Both the position numbers and the translations under genes were made by a program. Under the pieces are notes generated by a model that was not told where the DNA came from, searched no databases, and was given only the letters and a program-made list of their open reading frames with translations. A DNA stretch of 64,000 nt, from positions 19,182-83,181 of the forward strand of contig CADBGN010000007.1 of the NCBI GenBank assembly GCA_902794155.1, written 5' to 3'. Each line of letters opens with the position of its first letter. Position 1 is the first letter of the stretch. Below are positions 2,605 through 21,737 of the stretch, one piece after another. The stretch comes from an uncultured Bacteroidia bacterium (lineage in GTDB: Bacteria; Bacteroidota; Bacteroidia; Bacteroidales; F082).

Positions 2605-3771
2605 ATGGACGACGGTAGCACATCGGGAATCATCAATGGGAGTTTCATCACTGAGACGGATGCCTTGACGGTGTACGAGTCCTCGTCGTCGCGTGGCTTC
2701 AACCAGGTGGTGAAGATTCGGAGACAAGGCAAGTGGTTCGTCCTGAAAGGATTGAAGCCTGGGTATAGCGATCAACAAGCTTATGTCGAGCTGTTGAAAA
2801 AGGAGTTTGACTTGGGCACCCAACTCGACCATCCCAACATTGTGAAGATTCTTGCTAAGGAAATGAATCCCGAGATTGGGCCTTGCATCGTGATGGAGTA
2901 TGTGGATGGCGTGACTTTGGACGAGTTTCTTGCAGCAAAGCCCTCCATGGCCGCTCGCAAAAAAGTGGTGGAACAACTGGTGGAAGTCCTTGCTTACATC
3001 CATGGCAAGCAGATCATCCATCGCGACTTGAAGCCAAGCAATATTTTGGTGACAAGAAACGGCAATAATGTGAAAATCATCGATTTCGGTCTTTCCGATG
3101 CCGATGACTATGCCGTGTTGAAACAGCCTGCTGGCACCTTGAAGTATATGGCTCCCGAGCAAAAGGAGCCGGATGTGAAGATAGATGGCCGCGCCGACAT
3201 CTATGCTTTTGGATTGTTGTTGAAGGAAATCTTTCCGCGTCGCTACAAACACATCGCTGCCAAGTGTTCCCGTGCCGACCGTGACCGCCGTTATGCCAAT
3301 GCTGAAGCATTAAGGAAGGCTTTTGAACGGCATTCGCGCTGGCTTTGGATGCTCCCCATCCTGATAGGTGTGGCATTGGCGATTATTCCGATGTTGTTGA
3401 AGCCCAAGGAAATTGTCCGAACCGAGGTGCAGCATGTGATTGACACTATCATTGTGGAACGCAATCCCAACGGCTATTCCGACGAGTTCATGGCACTGCT
3501 CGACAGGGCTGAGTTTATCATTGATAGCATGTATCAGCCTGTCATCGACGACATAAACAATGGAAAATATGAGGCAGATATTGTTGGTGTCAACAATGAT
3601 TTCACTAACAGGATGAAGATTTGTCGTTCATTGTTACAAAACATCCAATCGCCGTTGCTTGACGACCGCAAGACGAGCGATGAGTTCAGAAGTGCATGGG
3701 AAAAAGTGCACAACGACAAGTATAACCAGATTGCTTTTATGATGTTCGACCGGGTGAACCAAACGGAATAG
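2605..3771 (+). CDS. Ser/Thr protein kinase with one TM helix and a C-terminal non-kinase region
   Basis: Hanks-type motifs HRDLKPSNILV, DFGLS and YMAPE. TM segment WLWMLPILIGVALAIIPMLL. Confidence 0.88.
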   Translation: MDDGSTSGIINGSFITETDALTVYESSSSRGFNQVVKIRRQGKWFVLKGLKPGYSDQQAYVELLKKEFDLGTQLDHPNIVKILAKEMNPEIGPCIVMEYVDGVTLDEFLAAKPSMAARKKVVEQLVEVLAYIHGKQIIHRDLKPSNILVTRNGNNVKIIDFGLSDADDYAVLKQPAGTLKYMAPEQKEPDVKIDGRADIYAFGLLLKEIFPRRYKHIAAKCSRADRDRRYANAEALRKAFERHSRWLWMLPILIGVALAIIPMLLKPKEIVRTEVQHVIDTIIVERNPNGYSDEFMALLDRAEFIIDSMYQPVIDDINNGKYEADIVGVNNDFTNRMKICRSLLQNIQSPLLDDRKTSDEFRSAWEKVHNDKYNQIAFMMFDRVNQTE

Positions 3772-3806: not shown

Positions 3807-5159
3807 CTATAATAAAGGTGTCATGTAAATAGGTAGGTAGGTGACATTGTTCTCGATTTTTAGGTCTGAGGTGTGGATGACGGTAGGAGTGGTTAAATGC
3901 TCTGAGAACTTTCTCATGGCTTTGTTTAGTGATGACAATGTGTAGTTTTTGCCACTCTTGACTTCGATGGGACGGATATTGTGGCGACTGGTCACTTTAT
4001 CCTTTTGAAGCAGAAAATCAATTTCCATTCTGTCCTCTGCGTTTTCTGACGAGTTGCTGAAAAAATAAAGGTTGTGTCCGCTTGAGGTGAGCATCTGGGC
4101 CACCATGTTTTCCATGAACATGCCTTCATTTACCTCCAGTTTCTCGAGCAGCAGTTTTCTGTAGATGTCAGATGAGACGATGCCTCGTTCATCGAATGCA
4201 TGGCTGATGAGCAGTCCGGTATCATTCATATAACATTTCAGGGTGGTACGCTCCTCGTTCAGTTTCAACCCAATGTTTGGTTCCGTTGAATTATAGCAAA
4301 TGTTGACAATCCTTGCGTCTTTCAGCCAAAAGAATGCATCATCCCAATCGCGATATTTGGCGCCAGGTTTCAAGGCCGAAAGCCGGAATTTCTTTTCGTG
4401 CTTCGATAGTTGTGAAGGTGTTTGGTCGAAAATGCTTGCCACTTTGTCGGCTTGGTCGCCAGCATAATTGAAGATGTCGTTGCGATAGATGGTCAATATA
4501 TCCCGTTTGGCTTCGTCAACGGCATCGAAATCCTTGGTTTCTATGTACTTTTTGACGGCCTGGGGCATACCTCCAACAATCATATACTTACGGAACGCAT
4601 CCATGGCTTGCCTATGAAAAACCTGCCCCATTGGTTTATGATCCTCATACATTTTTCGAATCAAGTCCATAAGTGTCTCGTTGCCAGTTGCCCAAAGGAA
4701 CTCCTCGAAATCCATTGGATACATTTTCAGGCTGCGCTCTTCAGAGGGTAGCACTATGCCCTCCGTGTTTTTCTTGATGCTGACCAACGAGCCTGTCTCG
4801 ATGTAATCATATCTGCCGTCAGCCACTAGGAACTTGATGGCGGCTCGGGCTCTTTTGCAGAGTTGTATTTCATCAAGGATAATTAAGGAACGGCGTTCGT
4901 GAAGTTTGACGTGGTAATGCTGGCTCAGATAAAGAAACAGCGTGTCGAGGTCTTCCAAGTAGAGGTCGAACCATTCGTGCACCATCTGTGGAGCCTTGTT
5001 GAAGTCGACAAGCAGATACGAGTCATATTCATTACGGCCAAACGCCTCTACTATATAGCTTTTCCCGATACGACGGGCTCCCTCTATGAGTAGCGCCACT
5101 TCTCCTTGACGTTGCTCTTTCCATTCAACAAGTTGCTGATATATCTTACGTTTCATCAT
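3807..5159 (-). CDS. AAA ATPase of the AAA_14/DUF4143 (COG1373-like) type, copy 1
   Basis: Walker A GARRIGKS and Walker B-like IILDEIQ. The C-terminus carries a D...EVK motif (EIDFLL...IEVKSGK). Confidence 0.85.
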   Translation of the reverse strand: MMKRKIYQQLVEWKEQRQGEVALLIEGARRIGKSYIVEAFGRNEYDSYLLVDFNKAPQMVHEWFDLYLEDLDTLFLYLSQHYHVKLHERRSLIILDEIQLCKRARAAIKFLVADGRYDYIETGSLVSIKKNTEGIVLPSEERSLKMYPMDFEEFLWATGNETLMDLIRKMYEDHKPMGQVFHRQAMDAFRKYMIVGGMPQAVKKYIETKDFDAVDEAKRDILTIYRNDIFNYAGDQADKVASIFDQTPSQLSKHEKKFRLSALKPGAKYRDWDDAFFWLKDARIVNICYNSTEPNIGLKLNEERTTLKCYMNDTGLLISHAFDERGIVSSDIYRKLLLEKLEVNEGMFMENMVAQMLTSSGHNLYFFSNSSENAEDRMEIDFLLQKDKVTSRHNIRPIEVKSGKNYTLSSLNKAMRKFSEHLTTPTVIHTSDLKIENNVTYLPIYMTPLL

Positions 5160-5166
5160 TACAAAA

Positions 5167-5265
5167 CACCTTTTTGAGATTTTTGACGCTGCAAATATAC
5201 ACCTTTTTGAGATTTTTGATGCTATAAATATACACCTTTTTGAGATTTTTCACGCTGCATTTGTA
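5167..5265. repeat. 3 x 33-bp tandem array (cacctttttgagatttttgacgctgcaaatata)
   Basis: Units are 5167-5199, 5200-5232 and 5233-5265. Read on the minus strand, units 1 and 2 contain tatatttg and tatattta, which are -7-like boxes upstream of the ATPase start at 5159. Confidence 0.9.
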
Positions 5266-5547
5266 CTGCCTGCAAAAAGTAGACACGGAAAATAATTTTC
5301 ATTGATTAGTATTTTCCAAAGTAGGCACTGGCGAATTTTTTGGCTCGAATCGGTTTACAAAAGTAGACATATTTTCGCTTTTTGTCGTGTTTTCTTTTAC
5401 AGACTGTACCAGCTTTAGAAAGTAGACACGGAAAACATGAACCAACATGAACCAAACTGATTCCGTTTTTATTATCTTATTTTGCAGCCGTAAACATTCT
5501 GTTAAACGTTTAAAGGTTGCGCCCGACACGGAATTAGGGTTTAGAAA

Positions 5548-5865
5548 ATGAAAAAGTTGTATTTTGTAATGTTTGTAATGATGGCATTGTTTTTTGTGTC
5601 TTGTGGGTCGAGTGGTTCACAGGAGTACAAGGATTGGAAAAAGGTTTGTTCCAAGCTTGAGAAAGCCATTGACAAGGCCAAAAGTTGCGAGGAGTTAGAA
5701 GACGCCTATGAGGCGTTTGATGATGCCACGGAACTTTTAACGGACAAGGATTATGCAAAAGGTCAGGAAATGACGGACGAAGAGGAAGGCGAGCTTGACC
5801 TTTCCATCAAACAACTTGAAAGAAAATATGAACGGATGGAAGAAAAACTCTGCGATGATGACTGA
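5548..5865 (+). CDS. small acidic lipoprotein (105 aa)
   Basis: Signal peptide with lipobox (FFVSC). Followed by its own terminator. Confidence 0.65.
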   Translation: MKKLYFVMFVMMALFFVSCGSSGSQEYKDWKKVCSKLEKAIDKAKSCEELEDAYEAFDDATELLTDKDYAKGQEMTDEEEGELDLSIKQLERKYERMEEKLCDDD

Positions 5866-5897
5866 TCATAGTAGTTGCTTCTCTTGAAGACATCGAG

Positions 5898-5934
5898 TGC
5901 CGAATGGTGTGGTGACACACGGTTCGGCATTTTT
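5898..5934 (+). terminator. intrinsic terminator after the small lipoprotein gene
   Basis: Stem tgccgaa/ttcggca with an inner gtgtg/cacac stem, followed by T5. Confidence 0.7.
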
Positions 5935-5982
5935 GTGTTTTGTGCGAAATGCAACATTTTGAGCGAATTAAGCAAATGATTT

Positions 5983-6081
5983 CCCATTTTTCTGAACGAA
6001 TAATCCATAGTTCGCCCCGTTTTTCTGAACGAATAATCCATGGTGTGCCCCATTTTTCTGAACGAATAAATCCTTCCTTTG
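5983..6081. repeat. 3 x ~33-bp tandem array (cccatttttctgaacgaataatccat...)
   Basis: Units are 5983-6014, 6015-6047 and 6048-6081. A possible degenerate fourth unit lies at 5950-5982. The last unit merges into leader copy A. Confidence 0.9.
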
Positions 6082-6379
6082 CCGCAAAATCCTCATTTTT
6101 CTTTTGCTTTTCTCGAAAAATCCCTAATTTTGGAGCGTAAAACTAAAAGAAAAGCCTATGGAATAACCCGCCGTAAGGCGCAATAAGAAGCAATACACAT
6201 CACATAATCAGACGATTAGCAATATTCTGTCTTATCGAAAGTTTGGCGATTTAAGATAAAGAAACCAGAATGACGCTGAAAGTTGCACGAATAGCGTGTG
6301 CTTTTCAACATTCGGTTTCTTTAGGTATGCCAAACACCTCGATAAGCGGATGCAAAAGTATCACGCTTTTTTTGTGCTG
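6056..6379 (+). promoter_or_regulatory. conserved noncoding leader, copy A (near-identical to 12838..13164)
   Basis: ~325 nt align to copy B with only scattered substitutions and small indels. No conserved ORF. Contains a -7 box, a GNRA-capped hairpin (6169-6180) and a long hairpin (6241-6335). Confidence 0.7.
6125..6132 (+). promoter_or_regulatory. putative -7 promoter box (taattttg) inside leader copy A
   Basis: TAnnTTTG match with a TTTG-containing T-rich stretch ~20 nt upstream. The identical box occurs in copy B. Confidence 0.5.
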
Positions 6380-6518
6380 GTCCGAAGTGAACAAACATGA
6401 ACCAACAAGAACCTGAAGAGATTGCGGGGAAGTGTGTTTCTTTGCGGTGGGAAAAGCAGAAGTAATAATAATGGAAATAGGAAACAAAATCAATATCAAC
6501 AATTAAAACATTAGGACT

Positions 6519-7451
6519 ATGAAGTTGGCTAACAATCAAAAAAACAAAGCTAATTCATTGCGTCAATTGCTTTTTGGTAAGGACGAAGGCCTTAATCAAG
6601 CTTTATCAACAGGAGAAGTTCAGTTGATGCGTTTGAAAAACAGAGCAATTATTATTGACGGTCAGGAACATCCAGACCTGAATTTGTTCGATCTGTTTCT
6701 TGACCATCAAAACGATGCTTTGTTTGAGGATTATGTTAGAGAACATACAATTAGACGCGCCGCGCAATTGAGAAAAGCAAAATATGTAGTAGTTTTTATG
6801 TCTGATGGCAATTATTCACGATTCGCTGGAGTATATAAAATTCTTGGAGAAGAAAAACGAATACAAATTCTATCAGAAGCCCAACAAGGATATGAAGAAA
6901 CAGTGTTTTTTAAAGTTTCATATCTTGAAGTTTTTGAAGAGAACAGAGGCCGTATACTGATTGATTGGGGCGGTAGAGAGGCACAATGTTGGCTTCAATG
7001 GTTTAAGGGTGATAAAAACATCATTAGAATTGACAACGGGATTGTTCGTATACCGATACCTTTTGTTTCGTATAATGATGTATTATTGTCATTTAAGGAA
7101 TTGAAAAACATCATTGAAACAGATAATGCTGAATGGTGTGTAAAGCTGAAAAACGTTAAGGGCGTTTACTGCATTGCTGATCGAAAAAACGGTATGCTTT
7201 ATGTTGGCTCAGCTTATGGCACTGAAGGTATTTGGGGACGTTGGAGGGATTATGTAGGAACTAATGGACATGGTAATAATGAATTATTGATTGAGGTCAC
7301 TAAAGAAGATCCAAATTATGCTTTGAAACACTTCCAATGGTTTATTCTTGAATCTTTCCCCCTGGATGTGGACGACAGTTATGCAATTCAAAGAGAAGAA
7401 TTGTATAAAACGAAACTATGTACTCGGGTGTTTGGGTATAACAAAAACTAA
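6519..7451 (+). CDS. GIY-YIG nuclease-domain protein with an uncharacterised N-terminal region (paralog of 17889..18812)
   Basis: C-terminal sequence GVYCIADRKNGMLYVGSAYG...GRW...N...E gives the GIY...YIG pattern. Aligns along its full length with the second copy. Confidence 0.8.
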   Translation: MKLANNQKNKANSLRQLLFGKDEGLNQALSTGEVQLMRLKNRAIIIDGQEHPDLNLFDLFLDHQNDALFEDYVREHTIRRAAQLRKAKYVVVFMSDGNYSRFAGVYKILGEEKRIQILSEAQQGYEETVFFKVSYLEVFEENRGRILIDWGGREAQCWLQWFKGDKNIIRIDNGIVRIPIPFVSYNDVLLSFKELKNIIETDNAEWCVKLKNVKGVYCIADRKNGMLYVGSAYGTEGIWGRWRDYVGTNGHGNNELLIEVTKEDPNYALKHFQWFILESFPLDVDDSYAIQREELYKTKLCTRVFGYNKN

Positions 7452-9166: not shown

Positions 9167-10291
9167 ATGAATCGTAAAATGAAAAAAGTAATCAGTTTAG
9201 CAATTCTTTTGCTTGCTACTCCATGGATATTCGCACAGCAGGCCGATGATTATCGAAAAGCCGCCAATCAAGGTGATGTAGAAGCCCAATCTAATTTGGG
9301 TCGTTGTTATTATTTTGGAGACGGTGTTACGCAGGACTACAAACAAGCGGTTGTTTGGCTAACTAAAGCTGCTAACCAGGGTAACGCTGATGCCCAATAT
9401 TTGTTGGGCGGATGTTATTATTGGGGAAGAGGTGTGAGGCAAGACTACAAACAAGCAGTTTCTTGGTACACCAAGGCTGCAAATCAAGGTGATGCAGACG
9501 CCCAACTTCAATTGGGATGGTGTTATAAAAAAGGTGATGGTGTGAGGCAAGACTACGAGCAAGCTGTTGCTTGGGTTACCAAGGCTGCAAACCAAGGTGA
9601 TGCAGACGCCCAATGTTTTTTGGGCGGATGTTATTATAATGGAACCGGAGTAAAGCAAGACTACAAACAAGCGGTTTCATGGTACAATAAGTCTGCCAAC
9701 CAAGAACTTGCTGATGCCCAATATATGCTAGGCTTATGTTATTATTTTGGTGATGGTGTAAAGCAAGATTCCAAACAAGCGGTTTCATGGTTTACAAAAG
9801 CCGCCAACCAAGGCAATGCTAATGCCCAATATAGTTTAGGTAGATGTTATCAGGCTGGAGACGGTGTGAAGCAAGACAGCAAACAAGCGGTTACTTGGTT
9901 CGTCAAGGCCGCCGACCAGGGTCATGCTGATGCCCAAGGTAATTTGGGATTTTGTTATAATAATGGAGTAGGTGTAAAGCAAGACTACAAACAAGCGGTA
10001 TACTGGTGGACTAAGGCTGCCGACCAAGGGAATGCTGATGCCCAATGTGTTTTGGGTATGTGTTATTATATAGGAAGAGGTGTGAAGCAAGACTACAAAC
10101 AAGCGGTTTCATGGTATACCAAAGCCGCCAACCAAGGGAATGCTGAGGCCCAATATGGTTTGGGCGGATGTTACTATAATGGAGATGGTGTGAAGCAAGA
10201 CTACAAACAAGCGGTTTATTGGTGGACCAAGGCGGCAAATCAAGGACACCATGAAGCCTTGGAATGGTTGAAAGAAATGGGAGAACGTTGA
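9167..10291 (+). CDS. secreted Sel1-like (SLR/TPR) repeat protein, ~9 repeats
   Basis: Signal peptide. The 36-aa units (AANQGxAxAQxxLGxCYxxGxGVxQDYKQAVxWxxK) repeat at a 108-bp period. Confidence 0.9.
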   Translation: MNRKMKKVISLAILLLATPWIFAQQADDYRKAANQGDVEAQSNLGRCYYFGDGVTQDYKQAVVWLTKAANQGNADAQYLLGGCYYWGRGVRQDYKQAVSWYTKAANQGDADAQLQLGWCYKKGDGVRQDYEQAVAWVTKAANQGDADAQCFLGGCYYNGTGVKQDYKQAVSWYNKSANQELADAQYMLGLCYYFGDGVKQDSKQAVSWFTKAANQGNANAQYSLGRCYQAGDGVKQDSKQAVTWFVKAADQGHADAQGNLGFCYNNGVGVKQDYKQAVYWWTKAADQGNADAQCVLGMCYYIGRGVKQDYKQAVSWYTKAANQGNAEAQYGLGGCYYNGDGVKQDYKQAVYWWTKAANQGHHEALEWLKEMGER

Positions 10292-10483
10292 AATAACAAT
10301 AAATAGAAAAGAGACTAAACAGTCTTGAATTCTCTCTTCAATTCAATTCGTATTATCCGAAGCATTGGTTTTGTCAACCATTACACTTCAAAAAATTACT
10401 ACTACTTCTGGATTCCCGAGAAGCGATTGCGTGCTTCTGTTGTTTATAAAAGGATAATGAAAAGAGGATAAAAGTGAGTTATT

Positions 10484-10729
10484 ATGCCCAACACCGCCCA
10501 AATAGAATCCACCAAGCAAAAGCTTGAAGAAACCAAAAAGACCCTCAAGGAACTGCAGGAAAAGAAGACCGCCATCACTGATGCCGCCAAGCTGAAAGCC
10601 GTCAACAAGCAAATCAATGCCCTGCAAGCAGAAATCGGGAAGCTGAAAAGCGACATCCGTCTTTATGCAAGCTTAAATAGAGACGCCATCCGCGATTATC
10701 ATGAGATGGTCTTAGGAGATTTGGATTGA
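10484..10729 (+). CDS. small coiled-coil protein (81 aa)
   Basis: Heptad-rich ORF. Its 3' portion recurs as DNA fragments at 12271-12375, 21265-21319 and 21543-21617. Confidence 0.5.
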   Translation: MPNTAQIESTKQKLEETKKTLKELQEKKTAITDAAKLKAVNKQINALQAEIGKLKSDIRLYASLNRDAIRDYHEMVLGDLD

Positions 10730-12055: not shown

Positions 12056-12061
12056 TATTCA

Positions 12062-12137
<76 letters not shown>

Positions 12138-12146
12138 TATTCGCTG

Positions 12147-12270: not shown

Positions 12271-12375
12271 CAGGAAGAAATAGGGAAACTGAAAAGCGAT
12301 ATTCGTCATTATGCAAGCCTGAACAAGGACTCCATCCGGGATTATCATGAGATGGTTTTGGGGGATTTGGAGTGA
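12271..12375 (+). pseudogene. 3' fragment of a coiled-coil gene copy (no start codon)
   Basis: Translates to EEIGKLKSDIRHYASLNKDSIRDYHEMVLGDLE*. An in-frame TAA lies immediately upstream. Homologous to 10625-10729. Confidence 0.65.
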
Positions 12376-12450
12376 TAGGTGAACTCAACATTGTTTGGAT
12401 ATTGCGTTCTCGTACGAGCCGACTTGGTCTTTTAGGAGAATAGCATAACT

Positions 12451-12726
12451 TTATACCTCCGTCAGGAGGAATGCCATATATATTGGCAAGGTCAGCAGGT
12501 TATCGCTTCTGCCAATATTGTAGTCGCCTAATTTGAATGCGCTCGTGACATGATATTTTTCAGGGTGCTTCAAGACGGTGCGCATCGACTTGGCATTGCC
12601 CGTTGTGGCTTTACATTCCACAGGTGTGCATCGTCCTTTATAGCGCATAAGAAAGTCAAGTTCCACACCGCCGTCTTTGTGATAGTAATACAACTTGCGT
12701 CCCATCTTGCCGAAGATGTCGGCCAC
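12451..12726 (-). pseudogene. C-terminal remnant (~90 aa) of a DUF4143-type ATPase
   Basis: Aligns to the last ~90 aa of ATPase copy 1 (ELDFL...PVECK...LPIYM). No ATG and no ATPase domain. An in-frame stop lies just upstream. Confidence 0.65.
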
Positions 12727-12836: not shown

Positions 12837-12837
12837 T

Positions 12838-13164
12838 TCTCTGAACGAATAATACCTTCCTCTGCCGCAAAATCCTCATTTTTCTTTTGCTTTTCTCAAA
12901 AAATCCCTAATTTTGGAGCGTAAAACTAAAAGAAAAGCCTATGGAATGACCTGCCGTAAGGCGCAATAAGAAGCAATATAATTCATATAATCAGACGATT
13001 AGCAATATTCTGTCTTATCGAAAGTTTGGCGATTTGAGATAAAGAAACCAGAATGATGCTGAAAGTTGCACGTATAGCGTGTGCTTTTCAACATTCGGTT
13101 TCTTTAGGTATGCCAAACACCTCGATAAGCGGATGCAAAAGTATCACGCTTTTTTTTGTGCTGT
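12838..13164 (+). promoter_or_regulatory. conserved noncoding leader, copy B (near-identical to 6056..6379)
   Basis: Same -7 box (12908-12915), GNRA hairpin and long hairpin (13024-13118) as copy A. The T-run is T8 here versus T7 in copy A. Confidence 0.7.
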
Positions 13165-13269
13165 CAAGAAACGACTCGATATGAACCAAAATGAACCTGA
13201 AAAGATTGTGCGGAAGTGCGTTTCTTTGCAGGTAGAAAATAAGACAAGAACAACTAAAACAATACGAAT

Positions 13270-13530
13270 ATGAGTGTCGAATACTACAAAAAGAAATTGG
13301 TGGATTTGCGCGCCGATGTGGCCAAAGAGAAAGAAGCCAAGAAAAGAGACAACGAGAGGTATGCAGATTTAATCAAAAATGCCTCGTCACCTTCGAGCAA
13401 GGCTTCTTACAAAAAGAGTAAAATCGATCATGCTGCTTCACACGATCGCAGGATTGAAAGCCTGAAACGGGAAATAGAGCGTTGCAAAGAGACTTTGGCG
13501 CGCGAAAGGGAAAGAGCAAAGAGAAAATAG
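13270..13530 (+). CDS. small Lys/Glu-rich coiled-coil protein (86 aa)
   Basis: First ORF after leader copy B. Charged heptad-like sequence. Confidence 0.5.
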   Translation: MSVEYYKKKLVDLRADVAKEKEAKKRDNERYADLIKNASSPSSKASYKKSKIDHAASHDRRIESLKREIERCKETLARERERAKRK

Positions 13531-15932: not shown

Positions 15933-17519
15933 ATGAGATCAAGTATAATCGACATCCCTCGCCGACACGACCAGGCAGACCTTTTTGGCATCAAAGTCTA
16001 TCAAGAGGCTTTGATAGAGTATATTAAGTTAACGGATACTCCTATCACTATAGCTTTGCAGGGCGAATGGGGTAGTGGCAAGACTTCGTTGATGAACCAA
16101 CTGAAGTATAAGTTGTGCGATGAAGACGGTGCTCCCTATTTTTCTGTGTGGATAAACACCTGGCAGCATTCGCTGATGAAGAATCCGAATCAGGCTATTA
16201 TGAGCATCTTGGAAGGATGCATAAGTCAGATAGGTTCATTGAATCCAGACAAACAGAAGTGGGAGGAAAGCAAAAAGGTGATAGGTGGCGTGTTCAAAAG
16301 CATTGCTAAAGTGGGAGCTAAAGTTGCCGTAAGCACTCTGGGTGCAGATAGCGAGAGCGTCGACGATTTGTTTGGTGGTGGAGGCGAAACTTCAGATATA
16401 TCGAAGTTGAAGGATGAGATAGGCAAGATGATAGAGGCGGCACTAAATGTGAATCCGAACAAGATCGGATTCACATTCTATATTGATGACCTTGACCGAA
16501 TCGACCCGCCGGTGGCTGTCGAGATACTTGAACTATTGAAGAATATCTTCGACTTGGAGAAGTGCGTTTTCATATTGGCTATAGACTACGATGTAGTCAT
16601 CAAGGGTTTACGTTCCAAATTTGGTGAACTGACAGATAAGAATGAGCGTGAGTTCCGTGCTTTCTTCGACAAAATCATACAACTTCCATTCTCGATGCCG
16701 GTGGCTTCCTACAATGTTGACACATTCTTGGTGGATGCATTGAAGCGAATAGGAGTTTTCACGGATGAGGAACTGGCGAAGGAAGGCACAGCGGAATTAC
16801 TTTCAGAAATCGCCCAACTGTCGGTAGGTTGCAATCCAAGATCGTTGAAGCGACTGATGAATACCTTGTCGCTGATTTCCATAATCAATAACAAACTGAA
16901 AAACGAAGAGGAAACCTTGAAGCAGAACAAGGTGCTGAACTTTGCTTTGGTTTGTATGCAGATTGCTTACCCGTTCATTTACAATCAGCTTACAGAGGCA
17001 CCAGACTTCAAACAGTGGAATGATAGTATTGCGGCGAAGTTGAAACTCAAGCCGCTGACTGAGGGCGAAAAGCAGAGTCTTGATGCCGCAGAAGAATTTG
17101 ACGAAGATTGGGAGAAAGTGCTATTCCGCATGTGCCAGAAAGAGATATACTTAAGTAACAGGGCTTTTCAAGTATCGCTGCTGATGAACAAAATAGCAGA
17201 AATAGTGAATGATGATGCAAATCTTGGCGGCATTGTTGAATCAACCCTTGAACTCTCTGCCGTAACCAATCTGAAAGCCTTTGACACACCCAAGAAGTTA
17301 CAAGGCAAAAAATCGGCCATTGTCGGGGACTTCTTTGTTGAGATCATGACCGACAATAAGGTTGTTGTCAAGAAAGGTGGTGCTGCATGTGACAACACCA
17401 AAGGTGCTTTGCGCGAGATTGCCGAGAAGGTGGGGTTTATTGTCGATCCCAAATGGAATACCCAACAACTTGGCAATAAATTGGTAAACTATATCAATCA
17501 GAAAACCGTAAACGTATAA
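15933..17519 (+). CDS. KAP-family P-loop NTPase 1 (no TM insert) with a C-terminal HTH-like module
   Basis: Walker A GEWGSGKTS and Walker B FYIDDLDR, with the overall KAP layout. C-terminal module DNTKGALREIAEKVGFIVDPKWNTQQLGNKL. Confidence 0.85.
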   Translation: MRSSIIDIPRRHDQADLFGIKVYQEALIEYIKLTDTPITIALQGEWGSGKTSLMNQLKYKLCDEDGAPYFSVWINTWQHSLMKNPNQAIMSILEGCISQIGSLNPDKQKWEESKKVIGGVFKSIAKVGAKVAVSTLGADSESVDDLFGGGGETSDISKLKDEIGKMIEAALNVNPNKIGFTFYIDDLDRIDPPVAVEILELLKNIFDLEKCVFILAIDYDVVIKGLRSKFGELTDKNEREFRAFFDKIIQLPFSMPVASYNVDTFLVDALKRIGVFTDEELAKEGTAELLSEIAQLSVGCNPRSLKRLMNTLSLISIINNKLKNEEETLKQNKVLNFALVCMQIAYPFIYNQLTEAPDFKQWNDSIAAKLKLKPLTEGEKQSLDAAEEFDEDWEKVLFRMCQKEIYLSNRAFQVSLLMNKIAEIVNDDANLGGIVESTLELSAVTNLKAFDTPKKLQGKKSAIVGDFFVEIMTDNKVVVKKGGAACDNTKGALREIAEKVGFIVDPKWNTQQLGNKLVNYINQKTVNV

Positions 17520-17888: not shown

Positions 17889-18812
17889 ATGACAGGAAAA
17901 GAGTTAAATACAACATCTTTGATAGAGTTGCTCAGTGGCAAAGACAACGGTTTCGACCAAGCCATGGTTGCTGGCAAGGTGCAACTGATGCGCCTGAAAA
18001 ACATGGCCATCACCATCGAAGGAAAGATGCACAGGGACAAGAACCTGTTCGACCTATTCCTCGATCATCAGGATGATGGCTTGTTTGAGGATTACGTCAG
18101 GGAGCACACGCCTGAAAATGCAAAACTGCTGATGCAAGCGGCATACGTTGTTGTCTTTGTCGTCGACGGAAAGTATTCCCGTTTCGTTGGTGTATACAGG
18201 ATTCTCGGCCTGGACAAGAAGATCACCGTTCCGACCGATGACAAAAAGTCGTTCAGGAATAGAGTCTTTGTGAAAGTGGCTGAGCTAAAAGTTTTCAAGG
18301 AATATAGTGGTCGTGTGCTCGTCGATTGGGGTGGCGTGGCGGCCCTTCGTTGGATGCAATGGTTTAGAGGCGACAAGAAAGTGCTTCGCATTGACGAAGG
18401 CATCATTCGCATGATGATTCCTTTCACCTCCTATAATGACGTACTGCTTTCTTTCAAGGAGTTGAAGAACCTCATCGAGACCGACAATGTGGAGTGGCGC
18501 GACAAACTGAAGGCGGTGAATGGCATCTATGGCATAGCCGACCAAAGCAACGGCAAGCTCTATGTTGGATCAGCCTACGGCGACGAAGGCATTTGGGGCC
18601 GATGGAAAGTGTATGTCGAAACCAACGGACATGGCAACAACGACTTGCTGGTTGAACTGCTAAGCAAGAATAAAGACTACGCTTGGGACCATTTCCAATG
18701 GTTCATCCTCGAAACCTTCCCTTTGGACGTGACTGATGATTACGCTGTCCATAGGGAGAGCCTGTATAAAGAAAAACTTTGTACACGAGTGTTTGGGTAC
18801 AATAAGAATTAG
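17889..18812 (+). CDS. GIY-YIG nuclease-domain protein, paralog of 6519..7451
   Basis: NGIYGIADQSNGKLYVGSAYG... at the C-terminus. Full-length alignment to copy 1. Confidence 0.8.
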   Translation: MTGKELNTTSLIELLSGKDNGFDQAMVAGKVQLMRLKNMAITIEGKMHRDKNLFDLFLDHQDDGLFEDYVREHTPENAKLLMQAAYVVVFVVDGKYSRFVGVYRILGLDKKITVPTDDKKSFRNRVFVKVAELKVFKEYSGRVLVDWGGVAALRWMQWFRGDKKVLRIDEGIIRMMIPFTSYNDVLLSFKELKNLIETDNVEWRDKLKAVNGIYGIADQSNGKLYVGSAYGDEGIWGRWKVYVETNGHGNNDLLVELLSKNKDYAWDHFQWFILETFPLDVTDDYAVHRESLYKEKLCTRVFGYNKN

Positions 18813-18872
18813 ATAAGGAGCATCGCCGAAAATCCTATAAAGAGTAGGCAAACATTAAACAATTTATTTATT

Positions 18873-19175
18873 ATGGCAGATTTCAATATTGACGGCCGCA
18901 TGAAGGTCAAGACTTTGAAAGCCCAGTTTAAGGAGGCTTTCGGTGCAACATTGAGAGTTTACAAAGGTCCCGGCTTCGCTGACGACAACGCTACTTTGGC
19001 ATCCATCCGTGCCGAAGGCGCCAAAGGCGGCGAGGTGAAAGTGGTCGGCAACATGAAGGTCGGCAACTTCGAGGACAAGATCAAGGAAGTGTTCGGCATT
19101 AAGGTGCAGGTCGCCACAAAGGACGACTCAGCCCTTGCCGACAACGGTCTCACCTTGAGCGCTGCGGGAAAATAA
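18873..19175 (+). CDS. two-module small protein (100 aa), paralog of 15569..15883
   Basis: GRMKVKTLKAQFKEAFGATLRVY and GNMKVGNFEDKIKEVFGIKVQV. Confidence 0.65.
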   Translation: MADFNIDGRMKVKTLKAQFKEAFGATLRVYKGPGFADDNATLASIRAEGAKGGEVKVVGNMKVGNFEDKIKEVFGIKVQVATKDDSALADNGLTLSAAGK

Positions 19176-19235
19176 CCCATTTTTTCTATGAGGAGGGCGG
19201 GCGTAGTGTCAGCCCTCCCAATTTATGTTAAGCCT

Positions 19236-20949
19236 ATGAAATCCAGTATCATCGATGTGCCTCGCAGACACGACCAAGAAGACCTTTTCGGCATCAAAGT
19301 GTATCAGGATGCTCTCATCAAATACATCAAACTAACCGATACGCCCATCACTATCGCATTGCAGGGCGAGTGGGGCAGCGGCAAGACCTCGTTGATGAAC
19401 CTGCTTCGCTGGAACCTCTGCGAGGTGGACGACGCACCCTATTTTCCCGTGTGGATCAACACTTGGCAGTATTCATTGATGAAAACACCGCAACAGGCTA
19501 TCATCAGCATCTTGGAGGGCATCGTCAACCAAATTGGAGCGCTCAATCCCAACGCCCAAAGGAATGAGAGCATGAAGAAGATAGGCGGACTATTCAAGAA
19601 AATGGCCACGGTGGGTGCTAAGGTGGCAGCTGGCGTGGCTGGCATTGATGGTGGTGTGGTTGACGACCTTGTCGGTAGTGAGGAGGCACAATCCGACATC
19701 AACCAACTTAAGGAAGAAATCGGCAAACTCATTAATGAGGCTTTGGCCAATGACCCCTCAAAAATCGGCTTCACTTTTTATATTGATGACCTCGATCGTA
19801 TCGACCCACCTGTGGCGGTGGAAATTCTCGAACTTTTGAAGAATATCTTTGACTTGGAGAAGTGTGTTTTCATTCTTGCCATCGACTATGACGTGGTCAT
19901 CAAAGGCTTGAAGCCAAAATTCGGCGAACTGACTGAAAAAGAACGAGCGCGAATTCCGCTCTTTCTTCGACAAAATCATCCAACTGCCGTTCTCCATGCC
20001 CGTGGCTTCCTATAACGTGGACACGTTTTTAGTCGATGCCTTGAGCAAAATCGAATTCTTCTCCAAGAATGAGTTGACTGATGCGCAGTTGGCTGAAACT
20101 TTGTCGGAAGTGGCGCGACTCTCGGTGGGCAGCAATCCCCGCTCACTGAAACGCCTGACCAATACGCTTTCGCTCATTTCCATTATCAACGCGGAGAAGA
20201 GTGCCGAAGCGGAAAACAATACCCTGAACAAGACCTTGAATTTCTCGTTGGTCTGTATGCAGATTGCCTATCCCTACATTTACAACCAACTGACTGAGGA
20301 ACCCGATTTCAAGCAATGGAACGAGCGCATTGCCTCGAAACTGAAGCTGCGCCACTTGACCCCAGAAGAAAAGGAGAGTTTAGATGCCACTGAGGAGTTT
20401 GACGAGGATTGGGAGAAAGTGGTTTTCCGCATGTGCCAAAAAGAGACTTACCTGAGTAACAGGGCTTTTCAGGTTTCATTATTGTTGTCGAAAATCGCCG
20501 AAATCGTGAATGATGACAATCATTTGGGTGAAATCGTCGAAGCGACCATTGCCCTTTCCGCTGTTACCAATTTGAAGGCTTTTGATGGGCCTTTGCTGGT
20601 GAAGAAATCAAGAGCGTTGGAAGTGAACACTTTCAACGGTATGGAAATCAAGGGTAAAGGCCGTCTGTGCCATGCTATTGTTAAAGACTATGTGGAAAAG
20701 CATCCTGAGGTGACTTTGTCAGAACTGAAATCCGTTTTCAATGTACCCAAGTGCGAGGTCGTCGAGTCGCTTGAAGTGGCTATGACCATTAAAGATAGTG
20801 CTGGCAAGATTGGGGGAGACTATTATATCAAGGAAAACGACCAAATCAAGACCAAAGAAGGAAAGGTTGTAGTTTGGAGTTACTGGCCGGAACGCTTTTA
20901 TGCGCCGTTTATAGAGAAGGTTCAGAAATTAGGAATCAGAATTGGTTAA
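19236..20949 (+). pseudogene. KAP-family P-loop NTPase 2, reading frame broken once (frameshift or homopolymer sequencing error)
   Basis: ORFs 19188..20015 and 19996..20949 both align to KAP 1. Removing one A from the A5 run at 19936-19940 restores ...TEKNEREFRSFFDKIIQLPFSMPVASYNV.... Confidence 0.75.
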
Positions 20950-21170: not shown

Positions 21171-21264
21171 TAATCGAGTCTGGAATGCATTCAGTTACGC
21201 TATTTAGTTTTCTTGATACCGTTTGCCATCACGGGAATCATTACAATTGTTGATATGTTGTGAT

Positions 21265-21319
21265 GAACAAGGACTCCATCCGCGATTATCATGAGATGGT
21301 TTTGGGGGATTTGGAGTGA
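21265..21319 (+). pseudogene. 3'-terminal fragment of a coiled-coil gene copy
   Basis: Near-identical to 12321-12375 (NKDSIRDYHEMVLGDLE*). Confidence 0.6.
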
Positions 21320-21542: not shown

Positions 21543-21617
21543 ACCGATGCCGAAGAACTGAAAGCCATCAACAAGCAAATCAACGCCTTGAGGGAAGAAA
21601 TAGGGAAACTGAAAGAC
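21543..21617 (+). pseudogene. internal fragment of a coiled-coil gene copy
   Basis: Matches 10578-10652 (DAxxLKAxNKQINALxxEIGKLK). No start or stop of its own. Confidence 0.55.
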
Positions 21618-21737
21618 GTCAGCAAGCGGCGCTATGGTTTCTTGATCACTTTCAGTAATTCTTTGACACTTTTCTTAAGTTTTTCTTTACAAACGAAAAA
21701 AAATCTTATTTTTGTGCTTAATTCAAACGATCATTCT

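Follow-up and report, generated by a model that had tools for sequence, protein, structure and literature searches.

A duplicated structured leader, a candidate transcription attenuator, heads defence-gene arrays of uncultured rumen Bacteroidales

Terminator-type attenuators, such as riboswitches and the BglG/SacY, PyrR and LoaP leaders, combine a promoter, a covarying sensor with conserved loops and a hairpin plus U-tract ahead of co-directional genes, which show no obvious promoter themselves. The processive antitermination elements HK022 put and Bacillus EAR are cis-acting structured RNAs that lie near a promoter and head a long operon. In Bacteroides fragilis, the capsular-polysaccharide loci carry a conserved promoter and a long 5′ untranslated region on which the NusG-like UpxY antiterminators act. 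Here we analyze a duplicated element, hereafter the leader, in a 64,000-nucleotide (nt) stretch of DNA from an uncultured Bacteroidales bacterium (the window; assembly GCA_902794155.1, contig CADBGN010000007.1, positions 19,182 to 83,181 of the forward strand). Copy A starts at about position 6054 and copy B at about 12837 of the window, and each stands at the head of an array of defence-related genes. The leader features given below lie on the + strand in both copies.

The elements of a terminator-type attenuator are present in the leader as sequence motifs: a promoter upstream of a structured region, and a hairpin plus U-tract before co-directional genes. The leader differs from the described attenuators in that it has no Rfam match, no exclusive terminator/antiterminator pairing was found in it, its sensor would be a single 112-nt hairpin, and the defence genes downstream vary from locus to locus instead of forming one pathway. 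A cognate antiterminator protein was not identified nearby. As in the capsule loci, variable multi-gene Bacteroidales loci each have a similar promoter-leader that would govern their transcription, but the arrays described here lack a upxY/upxZ-like head gene and the inverted repeats of invertible promoters, and their gene content is unrelated. The literature on leader and antitermination RNAs in Bacteroidales, on structured RNA in defence islands, on Uzume and on DUF805b yielded no such element. The leader thus appears to be a previously undescribed family of structured RNA, of the terminator-type leader or attenuator kind. We propose, with a probability of roughly 55%, that each copy is a cis-acting promoter-leader with a conditional terminator (attenuator) that heads a defence-gene array.

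The initial annotation of this DNA had described a noncoding leader duplicated almost identically in front of two unrelated operons. When compared by blastn, positions 6054-6454 and 12837-13239 were 91.3% identical over 403 columns (E = 2e-162), with a gapless core of 95% identity (6054-6353 vs. 12837-13136), and the near-identity of the copies was therefore borne out. The weaker similarity reported at the flank is also real and continues to about 6447 and 13232. The TAATTTTG boxes (6125-6132 and 12908-12915), the cgcc-GUAA-ggcg hairpin (6169-6180) and the T7 run (6367-6373) were all found where they had been placed, the counterpart of the last in copy B being T8 at 13150-13157. That the downstream operons are unrelated holds for the genes right after each copy, but the gene at 6519-7451 has a paralogue at 17889-18812 in operon B (~63-65% protein identity, judged via near-identical orthologues at other loci). 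No third copy was detected within the 64 kb by blastn, and a covariance model matched just 6208-6376 and 12991-13160. Three 33-bp tandem repeats, each with TTCTGAACGAATAA (5957-6069), end where the similarity to copy B starts. The leader module has five parts, namely promoter, 5′ domain, 112-nt hairpin, hairpin plus U7-8 terminator, and a tail of ~75 nt.

Homologues outside this genome, which the initial annotation had regarded as decisive, were found in genomes and metagenomes of rumen Bacteroidales. About 18 species-level rumen Bacteroidales genomes were retrieved with an exact 19-mer taken from the 3′ arm of the hairpin, and 39 metagenome contigs with a 21-mer from the terminator (loci and contigs carry L numbers). 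The covariance model, which was built from nine sequences and a hand-specified structure, matched 60 sites in the collected loci with 89-216 bits. Metagenome contigs often start or stop inside the hairpin, which fits a repeated, variable sequence that breaks assemblies. The leader lies directly downstream of a kinase gene in 15 of the 18 genome loci, and the order orf187 (−), kinase, leader, array is conserved, with infB preceding where the flank is long enough. Two leaders on successive arrays were also present in the independent contigs L040 and L042/L070; the tandem arrangement of the window is therefore not an assembly artefact.

Two diverged lineages were reached via array proteins rather than via the RNA sequence. 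Homologues of a 122-amino-acid (aa) protein, the commonest cassette protein, led to arrays in other genomic contexts. Directly 5′ of the array and on its strand, the covariance model scored 30.6 bits (E = 6e-5) in L087-L089 and 21-22 bits (E about 0.01) in L083-L085. L090-L092 gave no match, also when the filters were switched off, and the region upstream of L090-type arrays is a different one. As judged by folding, the L087 and L083 lineages have the same architecture as the main family with different helix sequences. The homology of the L083 type is less certain and rests on position, orientation and shared motifs. There is no kinase near the leader in L087, so the RNA accompanies the arrays and not the kinase. 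Homologues of orf187 led to six loci, of which L082, with a small-gene array, has the RNA (124.7 bits), and L077-L081, which have no such array, are without it. With the kinase as query, only relatives of at least 73% identity, mostly above 80%, were recovered.

The leader matched no known RNA family. A scan of the whole window against Rfam 15, the check that the initial annotation had put forward, gave no match to the leader at the gathering threshold, and the only gathering-level match lay elsewhere (DUF805b, 18815-18850). A scan of 5850-6560 at a permissive E-value returned chance-level matches only (best 19.5 bits vs. a 50-bit cut-off), and ARAGORN found no tRNA or tmRNA. Positions 5940-6470 had no match among plasmids and phages by BLAST or in IMG/VR by one pattern scan; there is no evidence that the leader belongs to a known phage or plasmid.

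The central part of the leader is the 112-nt hairpin, with helices P1-P6 (6233-6344 in copy A and 13016-13127 in copy B). It was delimited by folding of family sequences, covariation and G-U asymmetry in copy A, and by folding, the covariance model and covariation in copy B. P1 pairs UAUCGA with UCGAUA, and P2 pairs GUUUGGCG with UGCCAAAC; an asymmetric internal loop (AUUUGAGAU / AGGUA) separates them from P3 (AAAGAAACC/GGUUUCUUU). P3 is hypervariable yet compensated across the family, and occurs in about a dozen compensated versions (e.g., UAGGAAU/AUUCCUA, UUGGUAC/GUACCAA, UCAGUAC/GUACUGA and AUAGAGA/UCUCUAU). P4-P6 make up the apical part, which exists in two forms across the family. In the L087 lineage P1 is GUGUCCGA/UCGGACAC and P2 is UUCUGCA/UGCAGAA, and in the L083 lineage these helices are CUGAU/AUCAG and CCUAGGAA/UUCCUAGG. 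A nested hairpin of ~95 nt (6241-6335) had been proposed from the window alone. Its gtttggc/gccaaac and aaagaaacc.../...ggtttcttt helices are retained, but acgct/agcgt is not in the family consensus, where the apical helices are AAAG/CUUU and (U)GCACG/CGUG(UG). The length was also underestimated, since the outer helix UAUCGA/UCGAUA extends the hairpin to 6233-6344.

Each of 41 distinct hairpin sequences, when folded singly, gave the same architecture (−34 to −49 kcal/mol). In a model-guided alignment of the main family (45 distinct sequences), 95.6% of the cells pair and compensatory changes occur at 17 of the 45 pairs (12 of 14 in P3). None of 500 shuffled controls reached the observed covariation values, and sliding the partner by 1-3 columns lowered pairing to 30-46%. 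When the diverged lineages were added, 27 of the 45 pairs covaried, including 3 of 6 in P1 and 6 of 8 in P2. A plain MAFFT alignment with RNAalifold missed the variable helix through misalignment, and the covariance-model alignment recovered it. G-U cells outnumbered A-C cells (162 vs. 53). All one-sided changes in P1, P2 and the terminator give G-U or turn G-U into a Watson-Crick pair, which identifies the + strand as the folding strand; this is the strand that carries the promoter and the U-run. Covarying helices are joined by conserved junction nucleotides, as in an aptamer: two unpaired stretches, AGGU in the 3′ strand of the P2/P3 loop and (A)CC linking P2 to P1, are kept in three lineages. 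A structured RNA read from the + strand is thus well supported by covariation and by the conserved promoter and terminator motifs.

Two other pairings were considered and discarded. For a long-range helix of the A-rich 5′ region with the U-tract plus GUGC, the observed variation gave the precise helix no support. Competition of GUUUCUUU of the tail for the 5′ arm of P3 was rejected, as GUUUCUUU is unchanged in loci with a changed P3.

Bacteroidetes promoters conform to the consensus TTTG-N17-21-TAnnTTTG. Copy A has a full-consensus match at 6103-6132, with the −33 TTTG at 6103-6106, an 18-nt spacer and the −7 box TAATTTTG at 6125-6132, and copy B has TTTG-N18-TAATTTTG at 12886-12915, again a full match. 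A pattern search found 5 matches in 64 kb vs. 1.07 expected; two belong to the leaders, and the arrays themselves contain none. All lineages of the family retain the motif despite diverged flanking sequence. Transcription is predicted to start near 6137-6141 (~6138) in copy A and near 12921 in copy B.

The 5′ domain (~90 nt) contains a short open reading frame (ORF) at a fixed distance from the −7 box, followed by a GYAA-tetraloop hairpin. This mini-ORF is AUG GAA UAA in copy A (6158-6166) and AUG GAA UGA in copy B (12941-12949), and its position, 23-27 nt after the −7 box, is constant among the family. In the main group it reads ME, MK, MG or MD and a stop (AUG-NNN-stop), or has 9 codons in a few loci; it is AUG-UAG in the distant group and AUG AUA UAG in L087, and was absent from L030 and the L083 type. 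The hairpin has a GNRA loop (GUAA or GCAA) and is cgcc-GUAA-ggcg at 6169-6180 in copy A and ugcc-GUAA-ggcg at 12952-12963 in copy B. Its closing pair varies among C-G, U-A and U-G, and also C-A; because of the C-A variant, support for the hairpin as a conserved structure is moderate.

Next to the long hairpin lies a terminator-like hairpin, CGGAUGC-AAAA-GUAUC(A)CG, followed in copy A by C and U7 (6347-6373) and in copy B by U8 (13130-13157). Its predicted energy is −10.8 kcal/mol including an AAG/CUU extension, and U7-9 is found across the family. The hairpin is invariant in the main family save for one change, G-U to A-U, which retains the pair. A clear counterpart of this hairpin, with U7, is present in the L083 type, and in L087 the stem ahead of the U-run is weak. 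A simple terminator scanner misses the leader terminator on account of the bulged A. One short leader (L055, 1957-2015, −) has promoter, mini-ORF and GNRA hairpin joined straight to a TGAACC repeat, without the long hairpin or the terminator, and the ORF downstream of it looks decayed. The hairpin-terminator unit thus behaves as a separable module, since this variant omits both.

The tail (the X module; 6374-6447 in copy A and 13158-13232 in copy B) contains (A/G)TGAACC repeats phased at 10 bp and ends with GTTTCTTTGC, the last conserved element, after which the sequence is cassette-specific. The tandem TGAAC repeats lie at 6387-6413 in copy A, and copy B has ATGAACCAAAATGAACC at 13181-13197. 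The tail is conserved in sequence, and no consensus RNA structure was found in it. A 22-codon ORF (MNQQEPEE...) starts inside the tail of copy A (6397-6465), and a 30-codon ORF from the tail of copy B (13181-13273) overlaps the next gene by ATGA. The tail is absent from the L087-L089 lineage and from L045. A shorter relative of it, X-up (5433-5470), was recognized by blastn and by pattern search. The TGAACC pattern occurs there without mismatch (5437-5453), and has 6 matches in the window vs. 0.78 expected. X-up is directly 5′ of the leader promoter in many loci (compared with L010 and others), and in the window a lipoprotein gene and the 33-bp repeats lie between the two. Two promoter assignments within the tail were rejected: an extracytoplasmic function (ECF) sigma-type promoter in the TGAACC repeats would have the wrong spacing to any CGT-like −10 element, and the tail TTTG, if taken as a −33 element, has no −7 box at the right distance beyond it.

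The leader is always co-directional with its array and directly upstream of it. In loci with a clean gene call the first gene starts 77-165 nt beyond the modelled region on the same strand, and in 47 loci the stretch from the U-run to the first gene contains no TAnnTTTG box. In the window, the first gene after copy A (6519-7451, +) encodes a 310-aa GIY-YIG protein homologous to UzuA of the Uzume defence system (PADLOC, 3.8e-67), and is followed by genes for a 71-aa, a 455-aa, a Sel1-repeat and an 81-aa protein. The first gene after copy B (13270-13530, +) encodes an 86-aa, coiled-coil-like protein and heads a co-directional array, from 13270 to about 26481, with KAP NTPases and the UzuA paralogue. 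PADLOC assigned the AAA_14 proteins of the locus to the candidate defence family PDC-S01 and the KAP NTPases to PDC-S20/PifA-like proteins, and it found the kinase domain to resemble those of defence kinases. The leaders therefore sit in a defence island, as Uzume, PDC-S01 and PDC-S20/PifA-like genes surround them. The arrays also hold nucleases, lipoproteins and Sel1 proteins, and are packed like operons, with intergenic gaps of 0-70 nt and no repeated hairpin inside. At least 14 unrelated kinds of first gene were counted across the loci. The suggestion that the leader travels with the cassettes has to be reversed: the leader is the constant head of the array, in a fixed position in 15 of 18 loci, and the cassettes vary. 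Duplication of an array brings duplication of the leader (the window, L040 and L042/L070).

These motifs suggest how the leader might work. Transcription would start a few bases past the TAnnTTTG box, and the polymerase would pass the two-codon mini-ORF and the GNRA hairpin, then the 112-nt hairpin with its two conserved base helices and internal loops, before it reached the hairpin-plus-U7-8 intrinsic terminator. Stopping there would yield an RNA of about 235 nt, and read-through would carry transcription into the tail and then into the array genes. The hairpin and terminator would thereby act as an attenuator that holds potentially costly defence genes low until some factor, which would recognize the conserved hairpin base, permits read-through. 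A protein seems more likely in this role than a metabolite; no conserved exclusive terminator/antiterminator pairing was found, and the genes do not belong to one pathway. The initial annotation had left the choice between a cis-regulatory RNA and a small RNA open; the cis-acting leader fits better, being co-directional with the array, directly upstream of it and separated from it by no consensus promoter. The L087 locus also favours this, as it has a TTTG-N19-TAATTTTG promoter, a mini-ORF, the hairpin and a U-run, then 29 nt to the start codon (29 nt in L087-L089), and no tail. Genes in L087-L089 and L045 would need transcription from the leader promoter through the terminator, because these loci have no tail and, in L087, only this 29-nt gap.

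Several points weigh against the attenuator. The start site, termination and read-through are all predictions, and inspection of the sequences revealed no conserved alternative (antiterminator) pairing. A fairly good hairpin followed by U7-9 would be in keeping with a simple small-RNA gene too. In the main family, the tail of ~75 nt has TGAAC repeats at 10-bp phasing and a TTnnTTTG box close to the consensus, and it could serve as a second promoter that depends on an activator, in which case the upstream RNA would be a separate unit. The covariation counts rest on alignments fitted by the covariance model, and exact 19-21-mers of the 3′ half served to collect the main family, so that the invariance of that half is partly a sampling effect. 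Finally, the 21-22 bits of the L083 type are close to the reverse-strand self-matches of the palindromic hairpin (about 20 bits).

The main alternative, though an unlikely one, is a stand-alone small RNA gene. The RNA of ~235 nt would act in trans or as a component of the defence locus, a decoy or an antitoxin, and the arrays would be driven by a tail promoter made of the TGAAC direct repeats with 10-bp phasing and the TTnnTTTG box, with the array start just after TTTCTTTGC, at about 6446-6455. The element has its own consensus promoter and a canonical hairpin plus U7-9 terminator, conservation stops about 8 nt past the TTTCTTTG box, where the start site would fall, and the tail, having no RNA consensus structure, resembles a protein-binding DNA site with a related copy upstream of the leader promoter. 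However, the L087 lineage and L045 do without the tail, and in L087 the U-run is 29 nt from the ATG. Moreover, the supposed tail promoter is imperfect: in its −7 box the A at position 2 is missing, and no −33 TTTG stands at the right distance. The orientation is always that of the array, and the element is duplicated along with the arrays. We consider it improbable that the hairpin is a processive antitermination element (HK022 put- or Bacillus EAR-like), which would bind the RNA polymerase that transcribes it and render it terminator-resistant, so that only polymerases modified in this way would get past the leader terminator and into the long, mosaic array. Its location just past a promoter, heading arrays of up to 13 kb of exchangeable cassettes, the sequence conservation of its base helices and loops, as for contact with a conserved host machine, and the lack of riboswitch-type alternative pairing would all agree with this. 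The array interiors, however, contain no strong predicted terminators, with 26 weak consensus sites vs. 19.7 expected, and hence there is no apparent need for antitermination. The leader also has one long hairpin rather than two put stem-loops or the EAR fold, and no sequence similarity to either.

Translation of the small ORFs offers a very improbable explanation, through ribosome-mediated attenuation or coupling by the mini-ORF or by the tail ORF (MNQxEPEK..KCVSL). The mini-ORF keeps its position in three lineages, and in most main-group loci the tail ORF runs for 17 codons or more without a stop, overlapping the next gene by ATGA in 9 loci. Yet changes in the long hairpin are compensatory and not codon-like, and the mini-ORF is missing from L030 and the L083 type. 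The tail was rejected as a coding ORF: early stops occur in 6 of the 38 loci with an ATG, the distant group has no ATG, and L087 and L045 have no tail ORF. We give hardly any credence to a DNA-level element, that is, a cruciform or single-strand recombination site that captures or shuffles cassettes, like integron attC/attI. The mosaic, cassette-like arrays beside a conserved head and the hairpin with a conserved base and a variable, compensated middle do recall attC, and GTTTGGC/GCCAAAC is one base from the integron core GTTRRRY/RYYYAAC. Against this, there is one element per array and not per cassette (two copies in 64 kb, each at an array head; gaps of 0-70 nt without a repeated hairpin), and the core-like boxes GTTTGGC...GCCAAAC are in the order opposite to attC. 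A Pfam scan of roughly 30 window ORFs, most large array genes among them, revealed no recombinase domain. Unlike attC/attI, the leader carries a promoter and a terminator: promoter and U-run flank the hairpin, and the pairing asymmetry points to a single folded strand, the transcribed one.

Three classes of known RNA were also considered. The description of the leader as riboswitch-like has not been sustained, as no conserved terminator/antiterminator alternative was found and the genes are heterogeneous. In particular, P1 and the terminator are adjacent and overlap by at most 1-3 nt, and the sole alternative pairing is 4 bp (GAUA/UAUC) and not kept elsewhere; the at least 14 unrelated first genes represent no single metabolic or transport pathway. 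A retron msr-msd RNA was rejected, as no reverse transcriptase domain was found by Pfam in most large ORFs of both arrays, and the first genes differ. 6S RNA was rejected as well: Rfam gave no match, the element ends 3′ in a terminator hairpin that shows no conserved pairing with the 5′ end, and the element is duplicated with arrays.

Within the arrays, a DUF805b RNA (RF02914, 40.8 bits) lies at 18815-18850, with the UzuA paralogue (17889-18812) on one side and a 100-aa cassette gene (18873-19175) on the other, which places this motif inside a defence array. It resembles the leader in being a small Bacteroidetes hairpin motif in the same array, but it is a 35-nt motif, unrelated to the leader in sequence and array-internal rather than at the head. 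A paralogue of the KAP NTPase gene at 15933-17519 occupies 19188-20949 as two overlapping ORFs (19188-20015 and 19996-20949); the split is also present in L033 and may be a genuine two-gene form or a conserved frameshift. The Sel1-repeat gene (9167-10291) contains eight 108-nt units (9256-10311), which share 66-76% identity with the first. Fragments from the 3′ part of the 81-aa coiled-coil gene recur at array ends (10577-10729, 12271-12435, 21264-21319 and 21543-21621). A lipoprotein cluster from 21588 has its own leader in L016 and L040 and none in the window. In L084 (10309-12591), L085 and L086, a protein of ~760 aa with a Ribosomal_L12 domain match lies beside TerB, OmpA, ion-channel and two tandem KAP NTPase genes; it is unusual for a defence-type array to encode a ribosomal-protein domain.

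Upstream of leader A, the window contains infB (20-1687), orf187 (−), the membrane Ser/Thr protein kinase gene (2605-3771, +), which is directly 5′ of the leader in most related genomes, an AAA_14/DUF4143 ATPase gene (3807-5159, −), a small lipoprotein gene and the three 33-bp repeats. The orf187 product (187 aa; 1756-2319, −) is conserved, divergent to the kinase, and belongs to a family of about 580 proteins, whose few given source names are all Bacteroidales. It had no Pfam or PDB sequence match. Its AlphaFold model (pLDDT, the predicted local distance difference test score, 82) has an N-terminal five-helix domain and a C-terminal beta domain, and a fold search with it gave no significant match. 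No DNA- or RNA-binding partner could be named, because orf187 has neither a sequence nor a fold match. A weak TGAACC-like repeat with 3 mismatches lies in its upstream region (2538-2554, −).

Upstream of the AAA_14 gene at 3807-5159 (−), three ~38-bp tandem repeats (CACCTTTTTGAGATTTTTGA...) and three AAAGTAGACA(C/T) motifs occupy 5165-5430. Between array A and leader B lie a second AAA_14 gene (−), a poly-T of ~80 nt and a shortened DUF4143 fragment. The poly-T (12060-12140) is located between the start of this AAA_14 gene (12055, −) and 12271-12726, a cut-down duplicate of the 3′ end of the 81-aa gene plus the 3′ end of DUF4143. This poly-T is also where two independent metagenome contigs, L001 and L002, end; it is either an assembly-breaking homopolymer or an artefactual join. 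In L070 (3400-3820, −) and L053 (2480-2900, +) the leader promoter is cut short after about 26-75 nt, where an AAA_14/DUF4143 (PDC-S01) gene sets in with its upstream region and start, and fragments of such genes lie between kinase and leader in L035, L046, L048 and L058. AAA_14/DUF4143 ATPase genes seem to insert and decay beside or inside the leader.

A bolder possibility, which we regard as rather unlikely, is that the hairpin and terminator form an RNA switch gating whole anti-phage arrays, in which a host or phage factor, made or altered upon infection or stress, would recognize the conserved hairpin base and let the polymerase pass. If so, the mixed defence cassettes behind each copy would be turned on at once, under a master control of the defence island at the RNA level, and the neighbouring membrane Ser/Thr kinase could feed into the switch. 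The family is limited to a clade of uncultured rumen bacteria, and it adds a well-defined candidate to the sparse catalogue of regulatory RNAs in Bacteroidota. The leader is also a practical marker for variable defence arrays and explains why metagenome contigs break there. The control of defence islands is largely unknown and their known regulators are proteins; an RNA supported by covariation, at the head of interchangeable defence arrays in dozens of rumen Bacteroidales genomes, gives a testable handle on it.

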